Shown here: positions 1,519 through 22,745 of the stretch, piece by piece | Layout of the letters: each line of letters begins with the position of its first letter | Position numbering within the stretch: position 1 is the first letter of the stretch | IMG/VR virus record: IMGVR_UViG_2778261182_000009 | Location: 1 to 22,745 of that record | Direction: 5' to 3' (one strand) | DNA: 22,745 nt | Origin: a virus | Lineage: Duplodnaviria > Heunggongvirae > Uroviricota > Caudoviricetes | Position numbers and translations under genes: made by a program | The notes under the pieces: generated by a model | Seen by the model: the letters and a program-made list of their open reading frames with translations, nothing else | What the model was told of the DNA's origin: nothing | Database searches by the model: none

Positions 1519-3406
1519 TGCAGCCGGTGCGATAGCCACAGGGCTTTTATCTCTCAATATTCCGGTACCACTGACGACAGTTCAGTGGGCTGATCGACAT
1601 TATTATCTGCCGAAAGAGTCTTCATATACCCCCGGGCAATGGGAAACACTGCCGTTTCAGGTCGCCATTATGAACAGCATGGGAAATGACCGGATCCGCA
1701 CTGTTAATCTGATTAAATCGGCGCGCGTTGGTTACACCAAAATGCTGTTGGGGGTGGAGGCTTATTTTATTGAGCATAAATCCCGTAACAGTCTGCTTTT
1801 TCAGCCAACAGATTCTGCTGCAGAAGATTTCATGAAATCTCATGTTGAGCCAACGATAAGGGATGTCCCTGCATTGCTGGAGCTGGCTCCATGGTTCGGA
1901 AGAAAGCACCGCGATAATACACTCACCCTGAAGCGTTTTTCCTCCGGTGTGGGTTTCTGGTGCCTGGGCGGTGCCGCTGCTAAAAACTACCGTGAAAAAT
2001 CTGTGGATGTGGTCTGCTATGACGAACTCTCCTCGTTTGAACCGGATGTGGAAAAAGAAGGCTCGCCGACGTTGCTTGGCGATAAACGTATCGAAGGCTC
2101 GGTATGGCCTAAATCCATACGCGGCTCAACGCCAAAAATCAAAGGTTCCTGTCAGATTGAGAAAGCCGCGAATGAATCTGCGCATTTCATGCGGTTTTAT
2201 GTCCCTTGCCCTCATTGCGGGGAGGCCCAGTATCTGAAGTTTGGCGATGATGCGACGCCGTTTGGCCTGAAATGGGAGAAGGGTAAACCGGAAACGGTGT
2301 ATTACCTGTGTGAACATAATGGCTGTGTGATCCGGCAGTCGGAACTTGACCAGAGCGACGGACGCTGGATTTGTGACAATACCGGGATGTGGACGCGTGA
2401 CGGCCTGACATTTTACAGCGCCGGTGATGAGGAGATGTCGCCACCGCGCTCAATCTCGTACCACATCTGGACGGCGTACAGTCCATTCACCACCTGGGTG
2501 CAGATTGTCTACGACTGGCTGGATGCGCTGAAGGACCCGAACGGCGTCAAGACGTTTATTAACACCACGCTCGGGGAGCCCTATGAAGAGGCTGTGGCAG
2601 AAAAGCTGAGTTTCGAGTTATTGCTGGAAAAGGTCTGTCACTATGGCGCGCAGGTTCCCCTGCGGGTGGTTTACCTGACCGCAGGGATCGACTCCCAGAA
2701 AGATCGCTATGAAATTTATGTATGGGGCTGGGCTCCCGGCGAAGAAGCCTTTCTGATTGACAAGCAAATTATCATGGGGCGACCGGAAGACGAGGACACC
2801 CTTAAACGTGTTGATGCGGTGATCCGGAAAAAATACCGCCATGCTGACGGTACTGAAATTTCCATTTCCCGCGTCTGCTGGGATACCGGTGGTATCGACC
2901 AGGACATTGTGTATCAGCGTTCCAGAAAACACGGAACTTTTTTTGTGCTTCCCATTAAAGGAGCATCGGTGTACGGCAAGCCGGTGATCACCATGCCCAA
3001 AAAGCGCAACCAGCGTGGGGTGTTTTTGTGTGAGGTGGGCTCTGATACCGTCAAGGAAATGCTGTACGCCCGTTTTGCCCTGCCGGTGGTCTCTGCCAGT
3101 GAAGCCGCCCCGTATACCTTCCGTTTTCCGGATAACCCGGACATTTTTTCGGAAGAAGAGGCGCGTCAGATCGTGGCGGAAGAACTGGTGGAGAAGGTGG
3201 TTAATGGCAGGGTGAAACTGCTGTGGGATAAAAAAGGGCGACGCAACGAAGCCCTCGACTGCCTGGTATATGCCTATGCTGCCCTGCGTATTTCAGTTCA
3301 GCGATGGCAGCTGGACCTTGAGGCACTGGCCCGGGCACGAAGAGATGAGCAGGACGAGGATGATATGAGCCTGGAAGAAATCGCGGCTGCACTGAGTGGA
3401 GGATAA
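1490..3406 (+). CDS. A: Terminase large subunit (lambda gpA family)
   Basis: ORF 1448..3406; homology to lambda gpA begins at the in-frame ATG at 1490 (MISDAQ..., AGGTGGA upstream). Long conserved blocks include [103 protein letters not shown]. Confidence 0.92.
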
Positions 3407-10957: not shown

Positions 10958-10980
10958 ACGCCGCACCGGCGTTTTTTTTT
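10957..10980 (+). terminator. Putative intrinsic terminator / attenuator between V and W
   Basis: AACGCCG, loop CAC, CGGCGTT, followed by a run of nine T, immediately after the V stop codon. Confidence 0.5.
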
Positions 10981-10992
10981 CGGAAAAATTTC

Positions 10993-11349
10993 ATGATTGG
11001 TATTGATTCAGCCACCGGCAGATATCTGCACGGTAACGAACATTTGCGTCAGTCCGTCACCGATATTTTATCAACACCGGTCGGCAGCCGGGTACTTCTC
11101 AGGGAATACGGCAGCAGGTTGTTCAGTCTGCTTGATAACCCACAGGATGATTTCACGCGGGTGAGGATTGTCCGTGAAACGGCAACCGCCCTTGAGCGCT
11201 GGGAACCCCGCCTGACCCTTCGGCGGGTGGAGGTGACGTGGACCGGAGAAGGAAGCGCCTGGCTGACGCTTGTCGGGGTGAACAACGAGACACAGGAAAC
11301 GATTCGACTCGAGGAGATAAAAATTGGCAACGTCTCAGGCAATCATTGA
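10993..11349 (+). CDS. W: Baseplate assembly protein W (P2 gpW family)
   Basis: 118 aa; ...SVTDILSTPVGSRVLLREYGSRLFSLLDNPQDD...ALERWEPRLTL... aligns with P2 gpW (...SIGDILRTPVGSRVMRRDYGSLLASMIDQPQ...LKWEPRVTL...). Confidence 0.82.
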   Translation: MIGIDSATGRYLHGNEHLRQSVTDILSTPVGSRVLLREYGSRLFSLLDNPQDDFTRVRIVRETATALERWEPRLTLRRVEVTWTGEGSAWLTLVGVNNETQETIRLEEIKIGNVSGNH

Positions 11350-12238
11350 TCTGTCCGCGATACCGGTACCGGATGCGGTGGAGGTGCCGGACACCGCTGT
11401 GCTGGTCACTCAGATAGTGGCGAAATATCAGGAGCTGGATACGTTGTTTTCGGCCATGGTGGAATCCGATCCGGCGTATAAATGGGCAGAGGCACTGGCT
11501 TTTCGTGTGGCGCTGATGCGCCAGCAGGTCAATGATGCTGTCCGGGGTGTACTGCTTGCCAGTGCCCGCAGGAACGATCTGGATCAGATTGGTGCGAATT
11601 TTCAGGTGCAACGTCTGGTCATTACCCCGGCAGATGACAGCACCATTCCGCCCACGCCTGCGGTGTATGAAGATGATGATGCTTTTCGCGAACGTATCCA
11701 GTTGTCATGGGCACGACTCAGCACCGCAGGCGCGAAAAACGCATATCACTATTTTGCACAGAGTGCCGATCCTGATGTGCTGGATGTGAAAGCCTACGGG
11801 CCGGAAACGCATTCACAGGAAGGGCGTGTTTTTCTTTATGTGTTATCGCGAACCGGAAACGGTACGGCATCACAACCCCTGCTGGATAAGGTGGCAGCGT
11901 CAGTCAATGATGATGAAATTCGACCTCTGACGGATTTTGTCAGCGTCCGTGCGGCAGAAATTATTCCCTACGATGTGGTGGCGGATATCCATATTCCCTA
12001 CGGGCTTGATGGTGAACTGGTGATGAAAAATGCCCGTCAGGCGCTGCAGACCTACACTGACAGTGTTCACCGGATTGGTTCTGTGGCGTCCTGCTCCGGT
12101 ATGGACGGAGCCCTGCATCAGACGGGGGTGATCACGGTGGCACTGAAATCGCCGGTCAGTGATATTGTTCCGGTGATGGGACAGGCTCCATGGTGTCGCT
12201 CAGTCACACTGAACAAGGTGGAGACAACCGATGAATGA
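11324..12238 (+). CDS. J: Baseplate assembly protein J (P2 gpJ family)
   Basis: 304 aa; probable TTG start at 11324 with GAGGAG 7 nt upstream. Conserved blocks against P2 gpJ: IIDLSAIPVPD, NDLDQIGANF, RLVITPADDSTIPPTPAV, RERIQ, YHYFAQSADPDV, VRPLTDFVSV. Confidence 0.85.
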   Translation: MATSQAIIDLSAIPVPDAVEVPDTAVLVTQIVAKYQELDTLFSAMVESDPAYKWAEALAFRVALMRQQVNDAVRGVLLASARRNDLDQIGANFQVQRLVITPADDSTIPPTPAVYEDDDAFRERIQLSWARLSTAGAKNAYHYFAQSADPDVLDVKAYGPETHSQEGRVFLYVLSRTGNGTASQPLLDKVAASVNDDEIRPLTDFVSVRAAEIIPYDVVADIHIPYGLDGELVMKNARQALQTYTDSVHRIGSVASCSGMDGALHQTGVITVALKSPVSDIVPVMGQAPWCRSVTLNKVETTDE

Positions 12239-14816
12239 CAAAATCAGAAGCATACTTCCTGTCAGCGCCAGCCGGGCAGAGCGGGTGGTGGACAGTACCG
12301 CCGGTGATATGCTGGCGGAAATCGCGGTCTGTCTGATCCGCTATGTCAAAAATCCCGATTTATGTCCGACGGAATTGCTGCCATGGCTGGCCTGGGAAAT
12401 GTCAGTGGATACCTGGAATGAGCACTGGACGGAGGCGGAAAAAAAGGCGGCGATAAAACGTGCTGCCTATATCCATCGTCACAGGGGAACAAAAGCCGCA
12501 CTGAATGAATCCCTGGCAGACAGTCCGTTCCGGTCGCAGATTGTGGAGTGGTATGAGCAGACGCCACCGGGAGATCCCTATACCTTCCGGCTGAATGTGG
12601 AGCAGAAGGATCTGCCGGTTCTGATGAGCGACCACCAGGATTTGAAACATGCCGTACTACGGGCCAAAAATCTGCGCAGCTGGTTCAGTATTCACGTTTA
12701 TGGAAACTGCCGGGGGAACGGATATGGTTATGGCTATGTGACGGCGACGGAAAAACTGAAAAATAAAATCATGCCATCACAGATCCTGTTGTCGCCGGAC
12801 AGTGTGCAACTGGCTCCCGGAGAAACGGTATCCATAAAAGTGACGATATTGCCACTGATCGCTGAAGATCGCACCTTCACTGTTCACCTGGCAGATGAAC
12901 GTGTGGCTGATATACAGGTTGATGGTGATGTAATCACCCTGACCGGCAGACAGTTCGGGTCCACCACGGTGACTGTGATGACGGTTAATGGTGTGACCGC
13001 CACGTTACCCGTAAGCATTGTGTCAGTCACCCGCGTTTTGATCCGGGTGGACAGTGTCAGCAGGCCATTATTTATGGTGGATCCCAGAGAAACAGGATTC
13101 ACCATTGATTATGGTGACGGAACAGATTCCCGGGACTACACCATTTCAGGGAACGATGTTATGACTACCCGGACACTGGCACCGGGGACGGAACTGATGC
13201 TGACGGTGAAAAACTGTGAAAGCATTACGTTTTATAAAACATATACGTCATCAAACCCGTTGCTGGAGATCATTCAGGTCTGTAGTCTGCGCACAAGTAT
13301 GTATCAGTTTGCATACGGGCACCGTGCGCTGAGAAAAATTCATGACGGAGCATTTGATTACCTGGTAAATGTGAATGATTTTGGCAGGGCGTTTATGGGG
13401 TGTTCTGCTCTGGAAACAGTCCCTGAACATTTGTTTGCCGCCTGTCAGCGGGTGCTCTATTTTTCGTATCTTTTCTGTGACTGTTCATCGTTGTCTGCAA
13501 TCCCGGATGGCCTTTTTGCCGGTGCCGGAGAAGTGGTTGATTTTCGTTATGTATTCAGTGGTTGCAGGAAACTTGCCTCCCTGCCTGAAGGATTGTTCGC
13601 CGACGCGGTTAATGCCACTGATTTTTCGTATGCATTCAATAACTGCAGTATGCTGACAGCACTACCCCCGCGTTTGTTTGCGGGAGCCGTATCAGCAACA
13701 AATTTCCACTATGTTTTTAATGGTTGTCGGGCGCTGACTTCCCTGCCGGATGATTTATTCCACGGACTTCATCAGGCCAGTATTTTCTCCCGGGCTTTTG
13801 CACTGACAGGTCTGACGCACCTGCCGGATAACCTGTTTGCTGAAACCCGTGGAACAAATTTTGACAGCGTTTTTTACTCTGCGGAAAAACTGACACGGGT
13901 TCCCCGCACGTTGTTCCATCTGCCGCTTCATGACGGGAATGTCAGAATTATACTGGATGGTGCTTTTGAGTTTTGTAGTGGGTTACTTACAATTGAGCCG
14001 GGTGTGTTTGATGACATTACGACGAAGATACGTTCAGCAAAGCGTGTATTTCGTCGCTGTTATGCACTGAAAGCGATACCGTCCCGTCTGTTTGCTGGTG
14101 CGGTGAACTGTGAATCTTTTAACACATCATTTGAAAGTTGTCTGGCGCTGACCTCCACTGGTGATGAAGTTTTCTCGGGGAGCGGGATCCAGGATGCACA
14201 ATTAATTTTTGCTTATTGCAGTAACCTGACAACGACAGGGGAAAGGTTGTTTGCCGACTGTCGTTCCCTGACGTCATACAACAATTGTTTTTCATCCTGT
14301 TCGTCACTAAGTCAGATCGGTGCAGGTATGTTGTCCGGCTGCGTTTCCCTGAGAACGGCTTATCATCTGTTGACCGATTCCGTGGGGAGTAACCGGGTGA
14401 CAACCGTGCCAGGGGATTTGTTCCGGGGATGTGTTTCCCTGAACAACATCAGCAGTCTGTTTGATTCCTGTGGTCAGTTAACATCAATTCCGGATGAACT
14501 TTTTGCTGATTGTCAGACGATACAGCATGCGGGGGGCGCATTTTCCCGGTGCGTGCGGTTACAACGTGTCCCGGCGGATATTGTTACGCCATCGACGACT
14601 GCATCCAGCCTGGCTTCCATGTTCCGCAACTGTGAACAGCTTGAAATGGATATCAACGATATATTTACCCGGAATTTCCCGTCGGGCTGTAATCTGCTGA
14701 CTATTTTTACCGGCTGTAAAAATGTGACCGGCAGTAAATCTGAATTTCTTGCAAAATTTCCGTCGCCCTCTGATGCAGAGAATGCCTTTTACGGGTGCGA
14801 CCGGCTGACAGACTGA
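12231..14816 (+). CDS. I: Baseplate protein I homolog (P2 gpI-like N-terminal ~175 aa) fused to a ~680 aa extension: predicted Ig-like domain plus a Cys-rich LRR-like repeat array
   Basis: One uninterrupted 861 aa ORF. Residues about 40-175 align with P2 gpI (NPDLCPTELLPWLAWEMSVDTWNEHWTEAEKKAAIKRAAYIHRHRGTKAAL...PPGDPYTFRLNV vs P2 NPDTCPANLLPWLAWAFSVDRWDEKWPEATKRAVIRDAYFIHCHKGTIGAI...PPGTFRLDI). Downstream come an Ig-like segment (SPDSVQLAPGETVSIKVTILP...TTVTVMTVNGVTATLPVSIVS) and 15-20 repeats of about 24 aa of the form F..C..L..(I/L)P..LFA......F...F. P2 gpI is only about 176 aa. Confidence 0.8.
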   Translation: MNDKIRSILPVSASRAERVVDSTAGDMLAEIAVCLIRYVKNPDLCPTELLPWLAWEMSVDTWNEHWTEAEKKAAIKRAAYIHRHRGTKAALNESLADSPFRSQIVEWYEQTPPGDPYTFRLNVEQKDLPVLMSDHQDLKHAVLRAKNLRSWFSIHVYGNCRGNGYGYGYVTATEKLKNKIMPSQILLSPDSVQLAPGETVSIKVTILPLIAEDRTFTVHLADERVADIQVDGDVITLTGRQFGSTTVTVMTVNGVTATLPVSIVSVTRVLIRVDSVSRPLFMVDPRETGFTIDYGDGTDSRDYTISGNDVMTTRTLAPGTELMLTVKNCESITFYKTYTSSNPLLEIIQVCSLRTSMYQFAYGHRALRKIHDGAFDYLVNVNDFGRAFMGCSALETVPEHLFAACQRVLYFSYLFCDCSSLSAIPDGLFAGAGEVVDFRYVFSGCRKLASLPEGLFADAVNATDFSYAFNNCSMLTALPPRLFAGAVSATNFHYVFNGCRALTSLPDDLFHGLHQASIFSRAFALTGLTHLPDNLFAETRGTNFDSVFYSAEKLTRVPRTLFHLPLHDGNVRIILDGAFEFCSGLLTIEPGVFDDITTKIRSAKRVFRRCYALKAIPSRLFAGAVNCESFNTSFESCLALTSTGDEVFSGSGIQDAQLIFAYCSNLTTTGERLFADCRSLTSYNNCFSSCSSLSQIGAGMLSGCVSLRTAYHLLTDSVGSNRVTTVPGDLFRGCVSLNNISSLFDSCGQLTSIPDELFADCQTIQHAGGAFSRCVRLQRVPADIVTPSTTASSLASMFRNCEQLEMDINDIFTRNFPSGCNLLTIFTGCKNVTGSKSEFLAKFPSPSDAENAFYGCDRLTD

Positions 14817-16846: not shown

Positions 16847-18322
16847 ATGTCCGGACTACATGGTGTTGAAACCATTGAACTGACAACAGGCACGGTCGCT
16901 GTGCAGACCATCTCCACGGCAGTGATTGGCCTGGTGGGGACTGCGCCGGATGCTTCCGGTGGTGTGTGTGCTTCCGGCACTGCCGGTTCGTGGCTGCTGG
17001 GAACGGCGCTGGATTTCACGGCGAAACAGGAAGGCCGGGCCGGCAATAAGATTTCTGTGGTTGCCGTCGCGGCCACAGAACAAAGCGCGCAGACCACGGC
17101 CTTACTGGAAGGTACAACCCTGACGATAAAGCTGGGGACGGATGAACACAGCCAGGTTAACGCCACGGTGGACCGTGTGACTGAAGTGGTGAATGCACTG
17201 GGTGATTCACCTGTGACGGCGGCGGTCAGTACCCTGAATGCAGGGGGAGCTGAAAATAATGTGGTGTCGCCGTTCAACCTGACGCTATCCGGCGGGGAAG
17301 ATGAGGCGTTCCCGGTTAATACACCGGTTGTGGTGGCAGGAGCCATTACTCAGGCAGGAAAACTGGGGGCTGCCGGGACACTGTATCCGGCCCTGCGAGA
17401 TATTTTTGACCAGACCGGTGCACTGGTGATTGTGGTGCGTGCGGAAAGTAAACCGAAAGCGAAAGAGGCTGAACAACGCGCGGCGGTGATTAAGGCCATG
17501 GAAGCGCTGACAGAGAGTAAAGGTGTGACGGGCTATCAGCCGCGCATTCTCATTGCCACGGGTTACAGTGAGGATGATGGTGTGGCAAAGGCGCTGGAAA
17601 CGTATGCCGCGAAGCTGCGGGCCGTGGCCTATATCGACTCTCCCTCAATGGCAACGCCGCAGGATGTGGTTCAGCGGCGCGCATCCTTTGGCGGACGTGT
17701 GGAACTGCTGCGCCCGCGCGTGTCAGTAACGGATGACAGCGGGCAGACGGTATTTCGTCCGTATTCGGCGCGCGCTGCCGGGCTGCGTGCCCGTATTGAT
17801 TACGAAAAAGGGTGGTGGTGGTCCAAATCAAACCAGGACGTGATGAATATCACCGGTCTGGAGCAGGTGGATACGTTTATTCTCGGGGAGCAGAACTGCA
17901 CGGCAAACCTGCTGAACATGGAAAATATCTCCACCATTATTCGTCACGACGGCTTTAAGCACTGGGGGAACCGTCTGTGTTCATCCCACAGTCAGTGGCG
18001 TTTTGAGCCGGTACGCCGCACTGCAGATGTGATTGAGGACAGCATCCAGGAGGCCATGCTGCCTTATGTCGATCGCCCGCTTGATAGGGATGTGGCGGAC
18101 GACATTCTTGGCAGTATTAATGCCTATATGCGTCAGCTTAAAAATCTGGGCGCGATCCACGGTGGCAGTGCCTGGCTGAATGATGAACTGAACACAGCAG
18201 AAACCCTGGCCGCCGGGCAGTTGTATATCGATTATGACTTTGGACCGAAGTCACCACTGGAGCGCCTGACACTGCGGGCGATGATTAACAATAAACTGGC
18301 GCTGGAGGAACTGACGGTATGA
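16847..18322 (+). CDS. FI: Contractile tail sheath protein (P2 gpFI family) with an N-proximal insertion
   Basis: 491 aa; the N-terminus MSGLHGVETIELTTGTVAVQTISTAVIGLVGTAPDA matches P2 FI ([37 protein letters not shown]). The C-terminal half is well conserved (GLRARIDYEKGW, IRHDGFKHWGNR, AETLAAGQLYIDYDFGPKSPLERLTLR). An extra segment of about 110 aa has no P2 counterpart. Confidence 0.9.
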   Translation: MSGLHGVETIELTTGTVAVQTISTAVIGLVGTAPDASGGVCASGTAGSWLLGTALDFTAKQEGRAGNKISVVAVAATEQSAQTTALLEGTTLTIKLGTDEHSQVNATVDRVTEVVNALGDSPVTAAVSTLNAGGAENNVVSPFNLTLSGGEDEAFPVNTPVVVAGAITQAGKLGAAGTLYPALRDIFDQTGALVIVVRAESKPKAKEAEQRAAVIKAMEALTESKGVTGYQPRILIATGYSEDDGVAKALETYAAKLRAVAYIDSPSMATPQDVVQRRASFGGRVELLRPRVSVTDDSGQTVFRPYSARAAGLRARIDYEKGWWWSKSNQDVMNITGLEQVDTFILGEQNCTANLLNMENISTIIRHDGFKHWGNRLCSSHSQWRFEPVRRTADVIEDSIQEAMLPYVDRPLDRDVADDILGSINAYMRQLKNLGAIHGGSAWLNDELNTAETLAAGQLYIDYDFGPKSPLERLTLRAMINNKLALEELTV

Positions 18323-18837
18323 TTACGGGTGAAAAAAAACTGTTGCGCGCATGGGCGTTATTTCTTCCTGGTGGGATCCGTCTTCAGGGGGCACATGAAT
18401 ACACGCCGCCTGCCATTAATATCACGACAGTGGATATCAAAACCGGCGCAATGGATGCACCGGTGGCAGTGGATGATGGTATGGAGGCGCTGACCTGCTC
18501 GTTTAAGATTTATGGCTACGATGTTGCCATGCTGACACTGCTTGGATTACAGGCGGGGCTTTATTCGCCGGAGATTGTTGTCCGCCAGGCTTACAGGGTG
18601 GGGAATGCGACCAGCGGACAGGTGGAAACCCTGCAGGGGATGATCTCCAGTATCACGCCGGATGCGCGCCCGGCAACGTCACAGGCGGAGGCTTCGGTGA
18701 CGGTGGAGATGTCGCTGAGTTATTACCGTCAGGCTGTAGATGGTCTGGAAACCATCTGCATTATTCCGGAGGAATTTGTTCGTCGTATTAACGGCGTTAA
18801 TGTTCTGTCGGATCTGAAAAAAATCATCCGGGTTTAA
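18319..18837 (+). CDS. FII: Tail tube protein (P2 gpFII position and size)
   Basis: 172 aa ORF directly downstream of and overlapping the sheath stop (GTATGA), with GGAGGA upstream. Assigned by synteny and the FII-like size; direct sequence similarity is weak by eye. Confidence 0.65.
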   Translation: MITGEKKLLRAWALFLPGGIRLQGAHEYTPPAINITTVDIKTGAMDAPVAVDDGMEALTCSFKIYGYDVAMLTLLGLQAGLYSPEIVVRQAYRVGNATSGQVETLQGMISSITPDARPATSQAEASVTVEMSLSYYRQAVDGLETICIIPEEFVRRINGVNVLSDLKKIIRV

Positions 18838-18856
18838 TCCGGGTATCCGGTTATTC

Positions 18857-18884
18857 AGGCGGCTCAGGCCGCCTTTTCTTTTTT
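18857..18884 (+). terminator. Rho-independent terminator after the tail tube gene
   Basis: AGGCGGC (18857-18863), loop TCAG, GCCGCCT (18868-18874), followed by TTTCTTTTTT. Confidence 0.65.
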
Positions 18885-18897
18885 AAAGGAGATGCTT

Positions 18898-19200
18898 ATG
18901 TCGGAAAAAAACAGTGTTCCTGCCAGCAGCGTGGAAATTGTGTTATCCGTGCCGTATGTCACCGCATCAGGGCAGACGATCACGCACATCACCATGCGTG
19001 CACCCACCGTCCGCGATCGTCTGTTGCATCGACGGAGTACCAAACCGGAAGCAGAGGCTGACCTGGATATGATTGCCGGTCTTTGCGGGATGGATGCGGC
19101 GGACATGATGAACATGGAAGCGTGTGATTACCTGGCCCTGGAGCGGCAGTTTAATGTTTTTTTGCTGCCGCCGGTCCGGCGGAAGAAGACAGCATCCTGA
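18898..19200 (+). CDS. E: Tail assembly chaperone (P2 gpE-like)
   Basis: ORF 18892..19200; AGGAG at 18887-18891 favours the ATG at 18898. Small protein between the tube and tape-measure genes; its 3' end contains a T7G slippery run. Confidence 0.7.
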   Translation: MSEKNSVPASSVEIVLSVPYVTASGQTITHITMRAPTVRDRLLHRRSTKPEAEADLDMIAGLCGMDAADMMNMEACDYLALERQFNVFLLPPVRRKKTAS

Positions 19201-19337
19201 CAGCGATACGGCGTGCTGGTGCCTGGTTCGGGTGGTCTCCCGGAGATGTGATGGCGCTGCCGTATACGGATTTTGTGTCAATGATGCTGGCAGAGTCGGA
19301 AGAGAGGAAACGACGTTATGGCAACGGTTGGCGATAA
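18898..19337 (+). CDS. Tail assembly chaperone frameshift product (P2 E+E'-like), made by a programmed -1 ribosomal frameshift
   Basis: The zero frame reads ...NVFLLPPVRRKKTAS and stops at 19198-19200. The -1 frame opens right at the slippery site (a stop at 19152-19154 sits just upstream in that frame) and runs stop-free from 19158 to a TAA at 19335-19337 (FFAAAGPAEEDSILTAIRRAGAWFGWSPGDVMALPYTDFVSMMLAESEERKRRYGNGWR), overlapping the tape-measure start as in P2. Confidence 0.55.
19157..19164 (+). other. Slippery sequence TTTTTTTG for the -1 programmed frameshift (E to E')
   Basis: T-run at 19157-19163 followed by G; the zero-frame codons are GTT TTT TTG. This is the same heptamer class used for the chaperone frameshift in P2-like tail operons. 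Confidence 0.55.
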
Positions 19338-20970
19338 CCTTAAAGCGAATATCAGGATCGGCGGCACGATAGATCCGTCGTGGAAAAAATCGGTTGATGG
19401 ACTGAAGCACGGATTATCAGGGGCAACACAGGAGGTGGCTCGCCTGACACGCCAGCAGGATGTACTGAAACGAAAAATTCAGGCTGGTGCACTGGCTGGA
19501 CAGGATATTACTGAACTGCGAAAGCAGTATGAAAAGCTGGGCAAAAAAATTCATGATGCCACCGGAGAGCAGGACAAATTTAACCGTAAGCTGGCTCGTG
19601 CTGAACGTCTGGAACGCTGGAAAGGGCGGGCCGGGACGGTCCTTAAAACCGGTTTTGGGCTTTCTGTTGGTTCGGGGTTGATGCTGGCAGCGGGCACTAC
19701 CGCTGTGCTTAACCGGAATACGGAAACGGCAGAGCGGGCAGGGATAGCCCGCAGTTATGGTGTGGATTATGAAACCTATGCGGCATGGGATTCACTTGCC
19801 CGACTGATGGGGCTGAATGGTGAAAACATCGGTGATCTGTTTGAGGAGTACCGGAACAAGGTTTTTGACGATGATAATGGTGCCACGGATAAAGGGGCCA
19901 TTCAGGAGGTGTTTGGTGCGCTGGGGCTGAAAGCCGGGGTGATGGCCGGAAAAAGCAACCAGGAGCAGGTCGAATTTTTATTTGATCGCTTACTGCAGGT
20001 AGAGAATGAACAGGTGGCAGCCGGGATGGCAGATGCGTTGTTTGGTGGTGAGGCCAATAAAATTCTGACCTGGATGCGTCTGTCAGGAAAAACTTACCGG
20101 GAGCTTATCAGTGAGCAGAAACGCTATAACCTGGTGACAAAGGCAGGGGCAGATGGCGCAGTTCAGGGGCATATGGCGCTGTCAAATCTCAGTAATGTTC
20201 TGAGTTCGTCCATTGATGAAATCAGCGGGCAACTGGGTAAGGAGCTGGCACCACATATTCAACAGGTGACGGATGACCTTGCGGCCTGGTTTAAGTATGG
20301 TGGACTGGAAAAAATCCGGGCATTTATCCGTGATGATGCCCTGCCGGCGCTGATCGACATGGCAGCATGGATGTGGAAATTCGGAAAAGTTCTGGCTGGA
20401 ATCACACAAAAAGCCATTGAGTGGGGGTTAGCGGATGATCCACGAGAGGACCGGCGAGAGGTGCTGGAATATCTGGCAAAAATGGGGTCGCCGGAGCTGG
20501 CGAGAGCGGTGGCGCAGAAAAACGGTCAGGGTGAATGGTTTGATGAACTTATCAGGCAAAATCCGGACCTGACGAAACAGGTTGTACAGGCCTATAAAGA
20601 CACCCGCGGTTATTTCCCCTGGAATCATGACGATAAAAAGTTTGATGCATTTCTCGACCCTTTGCTGGGACCGAAGGAAGAACCTGATTTTAAGGCGATA
20701 AAAGAGAAATCCCGCACCTACATTGACGGACTTCCTGCGGCAGGTCAGGGACAGGAAAATCCTGATCGCCTTTCAGCCCTCCAGTATACACCCGGCAGTA
20801 TCAGCAAGGTGGAAGTAAAACCCACATATCAGATACGGGCCGAATTTAACATCACCCAGAAATCTGGCGAGGATGCCGGACAACTGGCAGACAGGGTGAC
20901 GAAAAATCTGGGGGATATTCATTTTGGTCAGCGTTCCCGTATGACTGATGGTTATGAATCCTGGGGGTGA
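19318..20970 (+). CDS. T: Tail tape measure protein (P2 gpT position)
   Basis: 550 aa, predicted largely alpha-helical (coiled-coil-like, with charged heptad-like runs), and a Gly/hydrophobic segment (GFGLSVGSGLMLAAGTTAVL). It lies after the E/E' chaperone genes and before U, as for P2 gpT. Confidence 0.82.
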   Translation: MATVGDNLKANIRIGGTIDPSWKKSVDGLKHGLSGATQEVARLTRQQDVLKRKIQAGALAGQDITELRKQYEKLGKKIHDATGEQDKFNRKLARAERLERWKGRAGTVLKTGFGLSVGSGLMLAAGTTAVLNRNTETAERAGIARSYGVDYETYAAWDSLARLMGLNGENIGDLFEEYRNKVFDDDNGATDKGAIQEVFGALGLKAGVMAGKSNQEQVEFLFDRLLQVENEQVAAGMADALFGGEANKILTWMRLSGKTYRELISEQKRYNLVTKAGADGAVQGHMALSNLSNVLSSSIDEISGQLGKELAPHIQQVTDDLAAWFKYGGLEKIRAFIRDDALPALIDMAAWMWKFGKVLAGITQKAIEWGLADDPREDRREVLEYLAKMGSPELARAVAQKNGQGEWFDELIRQNPDLTKQVVQAYKDTRGYFPWNHDDKKFDAFLDPLLGPKEEPDFKAIKEKSRTYIDGLPAAGQGQENPDRLSALQYTPGSISKVEVKPTYQIRAEFNITQKSGEDAGQLADRVTKNLGDIHFGQRSRMTDGYESWG

Positions 20971-21461
20971 AGATGGTGGATTTACTGGGCTGGGGTGTAA
21001 ACCGGCTTGAGCGTGAAGCATGGGATGCAGTGGGTTCATTAACGGAGGTGGCTTCCCGCGTCATGCTGTCGTTTGGTGAGTTTGAATTCAGTATCGATAC
21101 GGCAGCGTATAACGCCATGAAGCGCACCATGGAATGGCGGTGGGATGAACAGCAGCTTATCGGAAAAAACGACCTGCTGCAGTATACCGGCAAGGGAGCC
21201 AGAGCAATAACCCTTGAAGGTATGGTGCATGCAGGATTTCGTGACGGTGTGGGAATGGATGCCCTTGATACACTGGTTCAGATGGTGGATGACAATCCGG
21301 CACCGTACCTTCTGGTCTCAAGCACAGGTGATGTGATGGGGTATTTTGTTGCAACCTCCTATTCAGATAACACCACGTCCTTTCTTCCCGGCGGTGCGCC
21401 GAAGAACAAAACGTTCACACTGGAGCTGAAATACTATGGCGAAAAACTGGCGGACCACTGA
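20967..21461 (+). CDS. U: Tail protein U (P2 gpU family)
   Basis: 164 aa ORF with start overlapping the tape-measure stop (GTGA), positioned between T and X/D as in P2-like tail operons. Confidence 0.7.
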   Translation: MKMVDLLGWGVNRLEREAWDAVGSLTEVASRVMLSFGEFEFSIDTAAYNAMKRTMEWRWDEQQLIGKNDLLQYTGKGARAITLEGMVHAGFRDGVGMDALDTLVQMVDDNPAPYLLVSSTGDVMGYFVATSYSDNTTSFLPGGAPKNKTFTLELKYYGEKLADH

Positions 21462-21654
21462 CGGCGATATGCTGGATGATATCTGTCAGAGACACTATGG
21501 CAGCGCCGGAGTTAACCAGTCACTGGCGGCGGTGCTGGAGGCCAATCCGGGACTGGCTGACCTTGGTCCGGTATATCCGGCAGGTGTGGAAATCGTGTTG
21601 CCGGACTGGGTGTATGAACCGGAGGAAAAGGAGACGTTTCAGTTATGGGACTGA
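21436..21654 (+). CDS. X: Tail protein X (P2 gpX family, LysM-like)
   Basis: 72 aa; GDMLDDICQRHYGSAGVNQSLAAVLEANPGLADLGPVYPAGVEIVLPD aligns with P2 gpX (GDTLDAICVRYYGRTEGVVETVLAANPGLAELGAVLPHGTAVELPD). Confidence 0.8.
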   Translation: MAKNWRTTDGDMLDDICQRHYGSAGVNQSLAAVLEANPGLADLGPVYPAGVEIVLPDWVYEPEEKETFQLWD

Positions 21655-22745
21655 ATGAATATCTGCCTGATTTCAGCCTGACAGCAGAGGGTGAGGATAT
21701 CACGAAGGCCATAAAGCGGGGGCTGGCTGAACTGCGTTATACCGATAATGGTGCTGCCACAAAGCGCTCCGATGAACTGATGATAACCCTGTTCAGTGAG
21801 ACGATGGCGCTGCCGCCAAAAGGCGCGGTATTAACGCTGGGACTGGGATTCAACGGAAACCTGGTAAATAAAGGCAGTTTTACCGTCTGCCAGGTGGCAA
21901 GCGGTGGTCCTCCCCGTCGGATCACCATTTATGCCACCGCAGCCCCCATGAATGCGTCAAAACATGGCGCAGACGTGACCGCACTGAAAACCCGTGCGTT
22001 CAGCGATGTCACGCTGGGTGACCTGGTGAAAACGATCGCCACTGAAAATAATCTGGTGGCACGGGTCTCACCGGCGCTGGCAAAAATTCGTATCCCGTGG
22101 GTGATGCAGTCATCTGAATCGGATGCGTCCCTGCTTTCCCGGCTTGCAGGGATGTACGGTGCCACCAGTAAACCGACGAACGGTTACTGGTTATTTCTGG
22201 AGTATGGCGCATCACAGAGTACAGGCGGCAGGGATGCGCCTGTAATGACCATCACGCCGGGCATGGTGTCAGACTGGGATTACCGGGAGGGGGTACGGCA
22301 GGGCGCATCCGGAGGCGGAAAAGGAACAACAAAAAAAGGGAAAGTGGGTGTCAGATATTTTGACCCTCGCGACGGGAGAACGCGCGAATTTAAAGTGGAC
22401 GTGGAGTCCACAGACAAGCGACATCCATTCACTCAGCCGGATCAGGACACAGCAAAACACTGCGCAGACTCTAAGGTTAAACGTGTGCAGAAAGCCGGAC
22501 GCCAGATGACGATAACGTTGCCCTGCAGGCCCGCATTGTTGAAAGCGGGGGCGGAAATGCGTTTTATCACGCAGGGATTTGGGGTACGCGAGGATCATAA
22601 CTGGCAGGCTGAGTCGGTGGAGTTTTCACTGGCACCGGGGCAGGGATTTACGCTGAATCTGTCGCTGGCCACCGATATCTCGGCGAAAGGGAAAGCATCA
22701 GGGAAGAAGAAAGCGGATAAAAAAGGCGTGAATTATTACGGGTAA
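21645..22745 (+). CDS. D: Tail protein D / late control gene D protein (P2 gpD family)
   Basis: 366 aa, with the stop codon at the window end. Matches to P2 gpD include GAVLTLGLGFNG, KGSFTV, LGDLVKTIATENNL, SESDASLLSRLAGMYGA, and a basic Lys-rich segment; final gene of the P2-like tail cluster. Confidence 0.85.
   Translation: MGLNEYLPDFSLTAEGEDITKAIKRGLAELRYTDNGAATKRSDELMITLFSETMALPPKGAVLTLGLGFNGNLVNKGSFTVCQVASGGPPRRITIYATAAPMNASKHGADVTALKTRAFSDVTLGDLVKTIATENNLVARVSPALAKIRIPWVMQSSESDASLLSRLAGMYGATSKPTNGYWLFLEYGASQSTGGRDAPVMTITPGMVSDWDYREGVRQGASGGGKGTTKKGKVGVRYFDPRDGRTREFKVDVESTDKRHPFTQPDQDTAKHCADSKVKRVQKAGRQMTITLPCRPALLKAGAEMRFITQGFGVREDHNWQAESVEFSLAPGQGFTLNLSLATDISAKGKASGKKKADKKGVNYYG

Follow-up and report, generated by a model that had tools for sequence, protein, structure and literature searches.

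A putative programmed −1 frameshift in the gpE-like tail assembly chaperone gene of an Escherichia coli prophage

Genomic setting of the chaperone gene

The stretch of DNA analyzed here (22,745 nucleotides, IMG/VR record IMGVR_UViG_2778261182_000009; hereafter the window) corresponds to the late region of an E. coli prophage and encodes a lambda-like head (large terminase, portal, protease/scaffold and major head protein) and a contractile tail, whose module includes baseplate and fibre genes in addition to the tail genes listed below. Matches to Pfam and PHROG families confirmed the tail gene order sheath, tube, chaperone, tape measure, U, X and D. The prophage pairs its lambda-like head genes with a tail module of the P2/R-pyocin-like contractile type, in which the order of the last genes is U-X-D. 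The region is present at 90–97% identity in 74 of 5426 complete E. coli genomes. A blastn search at the “distant” setting with positions 18319–19600 gave no match among 50,697 phage records and, on this evidence, none of the isolated phages in those records is near enough at the DNA level; the phage matches at the protein level are at most 42% identical. The features of the tail region, with the evidence for each, are as follows.

16847–18322, + strand: tail sheath gene, 491 aa (Pfam PF04984 and PF17482; PHROG 23 tail sheath, E = 6e-110)
18319–18837, + strand: tail tube gene of the P2 FII type, 172 aa (Pfam PF04985 Phage_tube, E = 4e-22)
18857–18884, + strand: terminator-like hairpin, AGGCGGC-TCAG-GCCGCCT followed by TTTCTTTTTT (terminator scan)
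18886–18891, + strand: Shine-Dalgarno sequence AAGGAG of the chaperone gene, 6 nt before the ATG at 18898 (read from the sequence)
18898–19200, + strand: gpE-like tail assembly chaperone, 0-frame product, 100 aa, 11.1 kDa (PF10109, PHROG 166)
19318–20970, + strand: tape measure protein gene, 550 aa (PHROG 3654, E = 8e-210, and several tape-measure PHROGs)
20967–21461, + strand: gpU-like tail protein (PF06995, E = 8e-28)
21436–21654, + strand: Tail protein X (PF05489, E = 3e-19)
21645–22745, + strand: gpD-like protein (late control/baseplate hub), running past the end of the window (PHROG 52, E = 9e-95)

In a RefSeq relative the product of the tape-measure gene is named tape measure protein, and the score of the gpD-like gene (21645–22745) for PF05954 falls under the cutoff of that family. 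The hairpin at 18857–18884 separates the tube gene from the chaperone gene. At the equivalent position, relatives at 45–93% identity have hairpins of differing sequence, mostly with a T run after them. This hairpin may be an attenuator that keeps the expression of sheath and tube above that of the chaperone and the tape measure.

The chaperone ORF can begin at either of two ATG codons (18892 or 18898) and stops at TGA 19198–19200, where an earlier reading of the sequence alone (the sequence-only reading) had also ended the gene. The start at 18898, giving 100 residues, is favoured because of the AAGGAG at 18886–18891 and the RefSeq calls in relatives, which annotate a 100-aa chaperone product. 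The protein read in the 0 frame scores 45.7 bits against PF10109 (Phage_TAC_7; cutoff 25, E = 7e-12), with residues 14–89 aligned to positions 2–78 of the 79 in the profile, and the fusion predicted below scores 49.4 bits against the same cutoff. The family is described as “Phage tail assembly chaperone proteins, E, or 41 or 14”. By this profile match, which lies above the gathering threshold, the N-terminal domain is a member of the P2 gpE chaperone family.

The shift site and the −1 frame

Near its 3′ end the chaperone gene contains a run of seven T residues (19157–19163) followed by G (19164), the T7G sequence that had been proposed as a slippery site. The 0-frame codons here are GTT TTT TTG, so that the heptamer T TTT TTG is in phase for tandem −1 slippage; it lies 39 nt, or 13 codons, before the chaperone stop. 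The −1 frame is open from 19155 to 19334 and closes with TAA at 19335–19337, overlapping the tape-measure ATG (19318) by 20 nt. The sequence-only reading had described this frame as opening at the slippery run, continuing without a stop to 19337 and overlapping the start of the tape-measure gene. On translation of the frames across the site, each of its coordinates held. The elements of the site are given below.

19152–19154, + strand: last −1-frame stop (TAA) before the shift site (−1 translation)
19158–19164, + strand: slippery heptamer T TTT TTG, with TTT 19159–19161 for the P site and TTG 19162–19164 for the A site (phase checked)
19164–19337, + strand: E′-like extension in the −1 frame, 57 codons and TAA (periodicity, dN/dS and profile match)
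18898–19337, + strand: predicted E+E′ fusion, 146 aa, 16.2 kDa (junction ...QFNVFL then AAAGPAEED...)

A −1 frame that stays open for at least 59 codons follows only 3.4% of the window's 6346 coding positions. The window contains 23 in-phase XXXYYYZ heptamers, and that at 19158–19164 has both the longest −1 open stretch (59 codons) and the position nearest to the 3′ end of its own gene. An open −1 frame at 19155–19334 is unlikely to have arisen by chance.

Other repetitive motifs occur elsewhere in the window. The longest homopolymer is a T9 run (10972–10980) just 5′ of an ORF starting at 10993. The motif that shifts most readily in E. coli, A AAA AAG, occurs in phase at 12440–12446, early in the gene for an 861-aa tail protein (12231–14816); it is probably there by chance, because the −1 frame that follows it is open for 22 codons only.

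The site was compared in 64 loci from a scan of viral contigs and six from a scan of genomes of other Enterobacterales. The close set comprises 34 sequences, corresponding to 28 haplotypes. Across these haplotypes, the variable sites of the E-only part of the gene are distributed 59/18/9 among the codon positions, with the peak at third positions of the 0 frame. Between 19201 and 19317 the peak moves to third positions of the −1 frame (25 sites, versus 7 and 8 at the other two; chi-square p = 4.6e-4). The extension has dN/dS values of 0.19–0.44 against relatives at 50–55% identity, a comparison in which dS is saturated. A motif, RRxGxWFGWxPxx[VI][ML]xxP, is conserved within the extension, and conservation of the −1 frame begins right at the heptamer. 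Periodicity and dN/dS together argue that the −1 frame is translated, and held under purifying selection, from the heptamer onwards. Past 19338, in the tape-measure region, an ungapped comparison gave a flat periodicity (90/68/69), almost certainly through misalignment caused by indels or mosaicism.

Two overlapping ORFs were considered as coding and rejected. That at 19124–19372 on the + strand lies in the +1 frame, and the sequence-only reading was right to set it apart from the frameshift product. Its periodicity of substitution disagrees with coding in that frame, and its length varies from 33 to 86 codons among the relatives, while the −1 ORF is constant at 60 codons in 34 of the 34 close sequences. 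For the minus-strand ORF (18967–19410) the periodicity likewise disagrees. On these grounds both look spurious.

The same data bear on whether the −1 ORF could be a separate small gene with its own start. Such a gene has been called in this frame: PGAP annotates a 45-aa “hypothetical protein” in one RefSeq genome (NZ_CP078137), and gene callers report short −1-frame ORFs elsewhere (P0011, P0014, P0015 and P0019). The ATG used in NZ_CP078137, however, results from a Thr-to-Met substitution, at a codon that is ACA (19200–19202) in the window. The first ATG, GTG or TTG that follows the last −1-frame stop in the window lies in ...DVMALP..., past the conserved RRAGAWFGW motif, and no Shine-Dalgarno sequence was seen ahead of it in the window. 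Annotated starts also vary between genomes, whereas the conservation starts at one place, the heptamer. We therefore regard an independent gene as very unlikely.

Conservation of the heptamer and kinship with P2 E′

None of the 34 close sequences departs from T TTT TTG at the site. At 41–55% identity, prophages of Trabulsiella, Cedecea, Dryocola and Citrobacter keep NNT TTT TTG/A: the form T TTT TTG is found in Trabulsiella and one Citrobacter, and T TTT TTA in Cedecea and Dryocola. By locus, L071 and L076 have T TTT TTG, and L072, L073, L035 and L036 have T TTT TTA. The codon before TTT is GTT, GCT or CGT (Val, Ala or Arg), and in P2 it is GGT (Gly). The residue at this position thus varies and yet the third base stays T. 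At the site itself, Phe is always encoded by TTT and Leu always by TTG or TTA, while nearby Leu codons are CTG. Both patterns suggest that the motif is selected as nucleotide sequence and not for the residues that it encodes. The extension is conserved in the 34 close sequences and in five loci at middle distance. The sequence-only reading had made conservation of the extension in homologous phages part of its test, and the extension does persist in relatives down to 41–55% identity.

A long T run invites two further explanations. An error of sequencing or assembly could have placed an indel in the homopolymer, of a kind to which such runs are prone, the true gene being one uninterrupted ORF. 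The same T7G and the same two-frame layout are nevertheless found in 34 independently assembled close sequences, the layout recurs in relatives with T6 and in P2, and the 0-frame tail (LLPPxRRK...) is conserved together with its stop. The probability of such an error is negligible. Alternatively, RNA polymerase could slip at the T7 and add one U in some transcripts, which would lead to the same fusion. The window does have a homopolymer of seven T, and E. coli genes contain UUUUUUU less often than expected in each of the three frames, which may result from such slippage (PMC4066793). Against this, relatives and P2 have only T6 at the site (GCT TTT TTG, CGT TTT TTG and GGT TTT TTG); the phase of the heptamer has been kept and the length of the run has not, which argues against slippage of the polymerase. 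For E. coli RNA polymerase to slip efficiently, a run of about nine or more is generally required. The P2 record, furthermore, annotates a translational frameshift. We consider a transcriptional origin of the fusion very unlikely.

In P2 (GenBank AF063097), E occupies 19430–19705 and the joined E+E′ extends to 19857, with the remark “-1 frameshift; essential tail protein”; the shift site is at 19685 and T starts at 19850. According to the account of Christie et al. (2002) given in PMC3931495, gpE and gpE+E′ lie in the FETUD tail operon. P2 resembles the window in its PF10109 N-terminal domain, in a T TTT TTG near the 3′ end of E with a −1 shift, in a 57-residue extension that overlaps the start of the tape-measure gene, and in the location of these genes after those for sheath and tube. 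The two differ in the T run (T6 in P2, T7 in the window), in the distance from the shift site to the E stop (24 nt in P2, 39 nt in the window) and in the overlap with the tape-measure gene (8 nt with T in P2, 20 nt in the window). In the window, additionally, the sheath is about 100 aa longer than that of P2, the genes U and D are separated by X, and the head genes resemble those of lambda.

P2 E′ scores 78.7 bits against PF06528 (Phage_P2_GpE), whereas the extension of the window fails to match this family even at E ≤ 10. The extensions of relatives match homologous positions of the profile at E = 0.05–0.08, with 13 bits against a cutoff of 23. In hhalign, the family profile aligns with P2 gpE+E′ over 123 collinear columns (E = 3.9e-4, probability about 36%, identity 22%), with the Phe-Leu junction and the F-x-W-x-P-x-[DE] motif of E′ in register; the extension alone gives E = 3.8e-4 and a probability of 36% against P2 E′. 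The comparison with P2 E/E′ that the sequence-only reading had called for thus returned the same heptamer, likewise near the 3′ end of E, with an extension of the same length and an aligned junction. Of its broader claim, that this is a conserved chaperone arrangement of the E+E′ type, the N-terminal family, the gene order and the heptamer stand, and the likeness of the extension to P2 E′ is only remote. From its alignment, the extension is probably a distant homologue of P2 E′ that fails the current Pfam model.

NCBIfam gave no match for the fusion or the extension, and a search of PDB sequences with the family profile gave none at E ≤ 10. When about 5.8 billion protein clusters were searched with the 146-aa fusion, the 10 that were returned are all of the E type, each with no more than 62% coverage. 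Among the database ORFs, P0012 and P0016 contain the C-terminal half of E′ (…PGDVMALPYEDFVAIMLAEAEERKQCYGNGGR) joined to unrelated N-terminal sequence, a sign that the locus may have been recombined or rearranged in some genomes.

The extension is thus without a database family match, and no fusion protein is found among the proteins from the homology search, as might be expected if the open −1 frame were a product of chance or a non-coding spacer and the T run were incidental. The periodicity and dN/dS, by contrast, reflect selection on the protein in the −1 frame; relatives at 41–55% identity retain the heptamer and the ORF with its length; and the profile of the extension matches P2 E′ as well as the extensions of distant relatives (E = 4.3e-8, see below). 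The conservation data largely refute this explanation, and there is very little chance that it is correct.

The site also agrees with what is known of recoded chaperones in general. Two overlapping ORFs lie between the tube gene (18319–18837) and the tape-measure gene (19318–20970), the layout described by Xu, Hendrix and Duda (2004). As in their description, the downstream ORF has no start of its own before the motif and is conserved as coding sequence. The heptamer itself has the canonical form, X XXY YYZ in phase, and is conserved at the nucleotide level. T7G and T7C sites are also described in Smp131 and related P2-like prophages of Stenotrophomonas and Xanthomonas, where they are predictions only; these sites are likened to ours by their description and come from a different host clade.

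Predicted products and routes of recoding

Taken together, these comparisons make it very probable that a programmed −1 frameshift on T TTT TTG gives rise to both a gpE-like chaperone and a longer E+E′ fusion. Most ribosomes would read 18898–19200 and produce the 100-aa chaperone. A minority would slip by −1 with tRNA-Phe on TTT 19159–19161 in the P site and tRNA-Leu on TTG 19162–19164 in the A site, resume at GCT (19164) in the −1 frame and terminate at TAA 19335–19337. The resulting 146-aa product would have its first 89 residues in common with the chaperone, followed by a different tail of 57 residues. The tryptic peptide spanning the junction would be QFNVFLAAAGPAEEDSILTAIR after tandem slippage and QFNVFFAAAGPAEEDSILTAIR (the FF variant) after slippage of the P-site tRNA alone; the peptide across the site in the 0 frame is QFNVFLLPPVR.

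In lambda, a siphovirus, the slippery sequence is G GGA AAG. Just 5′ of its tape-measure gene, this phage encodes a short chaperone together with a longer form made by a −1 shift; the part common to both binds the tape measure, the extension binds the tail tube subunit, and the ratio of the two forms, about 1:30 (long:short), matters (PMC5009743). The parallel with lambda G/GT drawn by the sequence-only reading is sound as to this logic. It is an analogy and not a homology: a Pfam scan of the window protein at E ≤ 0.01 gave PF10109 only and no match to the lambda gpG or gpT families, so that the likeness is one of function rather than of family membership. The predicted roles in the window are borrowed from lambda. 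If P2 E/E+E′ and lambda G/GT are a guide, the N-terminal part would coat the tape-measure protein encoded next, the E′ tail would bring in the tube protein, and tail assembly would depend on the long form being made at a fixed, low ratio to the short one. We infer that the fusion is made, and likewise its amount and its binding partners. The motif U_UU.U_UU.G is absent from a list of the most efficient E. coli shift motifs (PMC4066793), and its efficiency may consequently be low. A low efficiency would fit a low ratio of fusion to chaperone, as in lambda.

Two elements near the heptamer are candidate stimulators of the shift.

19140–19143, + strand: candidate Shine-Dalgarno-like stimulator GGAG, 14 nt 5′ of the heptamer
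19168–19182, + strand: candidate stimulator hairpin CCGCCG-GUC-CGGCGG, starting 3 nt after the heptamer (weakly supported)

The GGAG lies within the 6–17 nt range used to search for such elements (PMC4066793). The sequence CTG GAG is kept in the window, L033, L071, L072 and L073, and GAG GAG is found in L070 and L074, a conservation that is confounded by that of the Leu-Glu residues encoded there. The hairpin has a minimum free energy of −11.8 kcal/mol, no better than that of shuffled sequences (z-score −0.5 to −0.9), and is also confounded by coding constraint. In L072 and L073 the same offset is occupied by another hairpin, of 8 bp (z = −4.2 and −2.3); in L076 and P2 the folding is weak. A consensus fold of 10 sequences (RNAalifold) reached −4.2 kcal/mol and showed no covariation, so that no stimulatory structure is clearly conserved. 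Folded singly, most of the sequences do not outperform their shuffled versions. We therefore treat both the hairpin and the GGAG as candidates, either of which may have a role. The E. coli dnaX gene offers a comparison, with tandem slippage on an X XXY YYZ heptamer; in the window, a possible Shine-Dalgarno-like element 5′ of the heptamer and a hairpin 3′ of it are the candidate stimulators (PMC3711429; PMC4066793). It differs in its heptamer (A AAA AAG), in having well-defined stimulators and in the outcome, as the dnaX shift leads to a shorter product and that in the window would lead to a longer one.

Two groups of relatives lack the canonical heptamer. The first comprises high-GC, pseudomonad-like loci at 28–35% identity (L037–L066), which are without an XXXYYYZ heptamer and in which the −1 frame is Arg-rich nonsense. 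In 26 of 30 of these loci the E gene ends in CTT TGA N, a +1 shift site of the prfB/RF2 type (for example in L041 and L066, both around 3260–3390), and 32–37 conserved residues follow directly in the +1 frame. This +1 extension and the −1 extension of the window family align in hhalign with a probability of 94.9% (E = 4.3e-8). On this alignment, the same domain seems to be reached by a −1 shift in one clade and by a +1 shift in another.

The second group consists of Hafnia phage yong2 (L070, 2749–2931) and two Rosenbergiella loci (L074 and L075, about 2734–2916), which have AAY GTT TTT ATG at the homologous site. GTT TTT ATG contains a T5 run and is non-canonical, and the −1 extension is still conserved between the Hafnia and Rosenbergiella loci. 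The sequence suggests that the P-site tRNA-Phe alone slips here on T TTT, or that some other route is used. Since these loci keep the extension without the heptamer, a canonical heptamer is not strictly required in the family.

We tentatively propose a joint reading of these observations, which may well be right but which we stop short of calling probable: the extension is a diverged branch of P2 E′ missed by PF06528 and NCBIfam, and the chaperone family switches the recoding route by which the domain is reached. The routes would be a −1 shift on T TTT TTG/A in enterobacterial prophages, GTT TTT ATG in Hafnia and Rosenbergiella, and a +1 shift on CTT TGA N in the high-GC relatives.

The mechanism is a textbook one, and the arrangement is ordinary for phages; its instance in this prophage lineage is unannotated. 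The two RefSeq records that we inspected contain the short chaperone only, with no join, and one of them adds a stray 45-aa “hypothetical protein”. As the fusion is absent from these records and from the homology search, a likely essential 146-aa E+E′ protein is missing from those proteomes, and as the extension falls outside the Pfam GpE model, profile-based pipelines will go on missing it. The prophage adds one more lineage that keeps the chaperone frameshift despite near-total turnover of the sequence. The prophage and its +1 relatives form a compact system in which to compare how different recoding routes set the same protein ratio.
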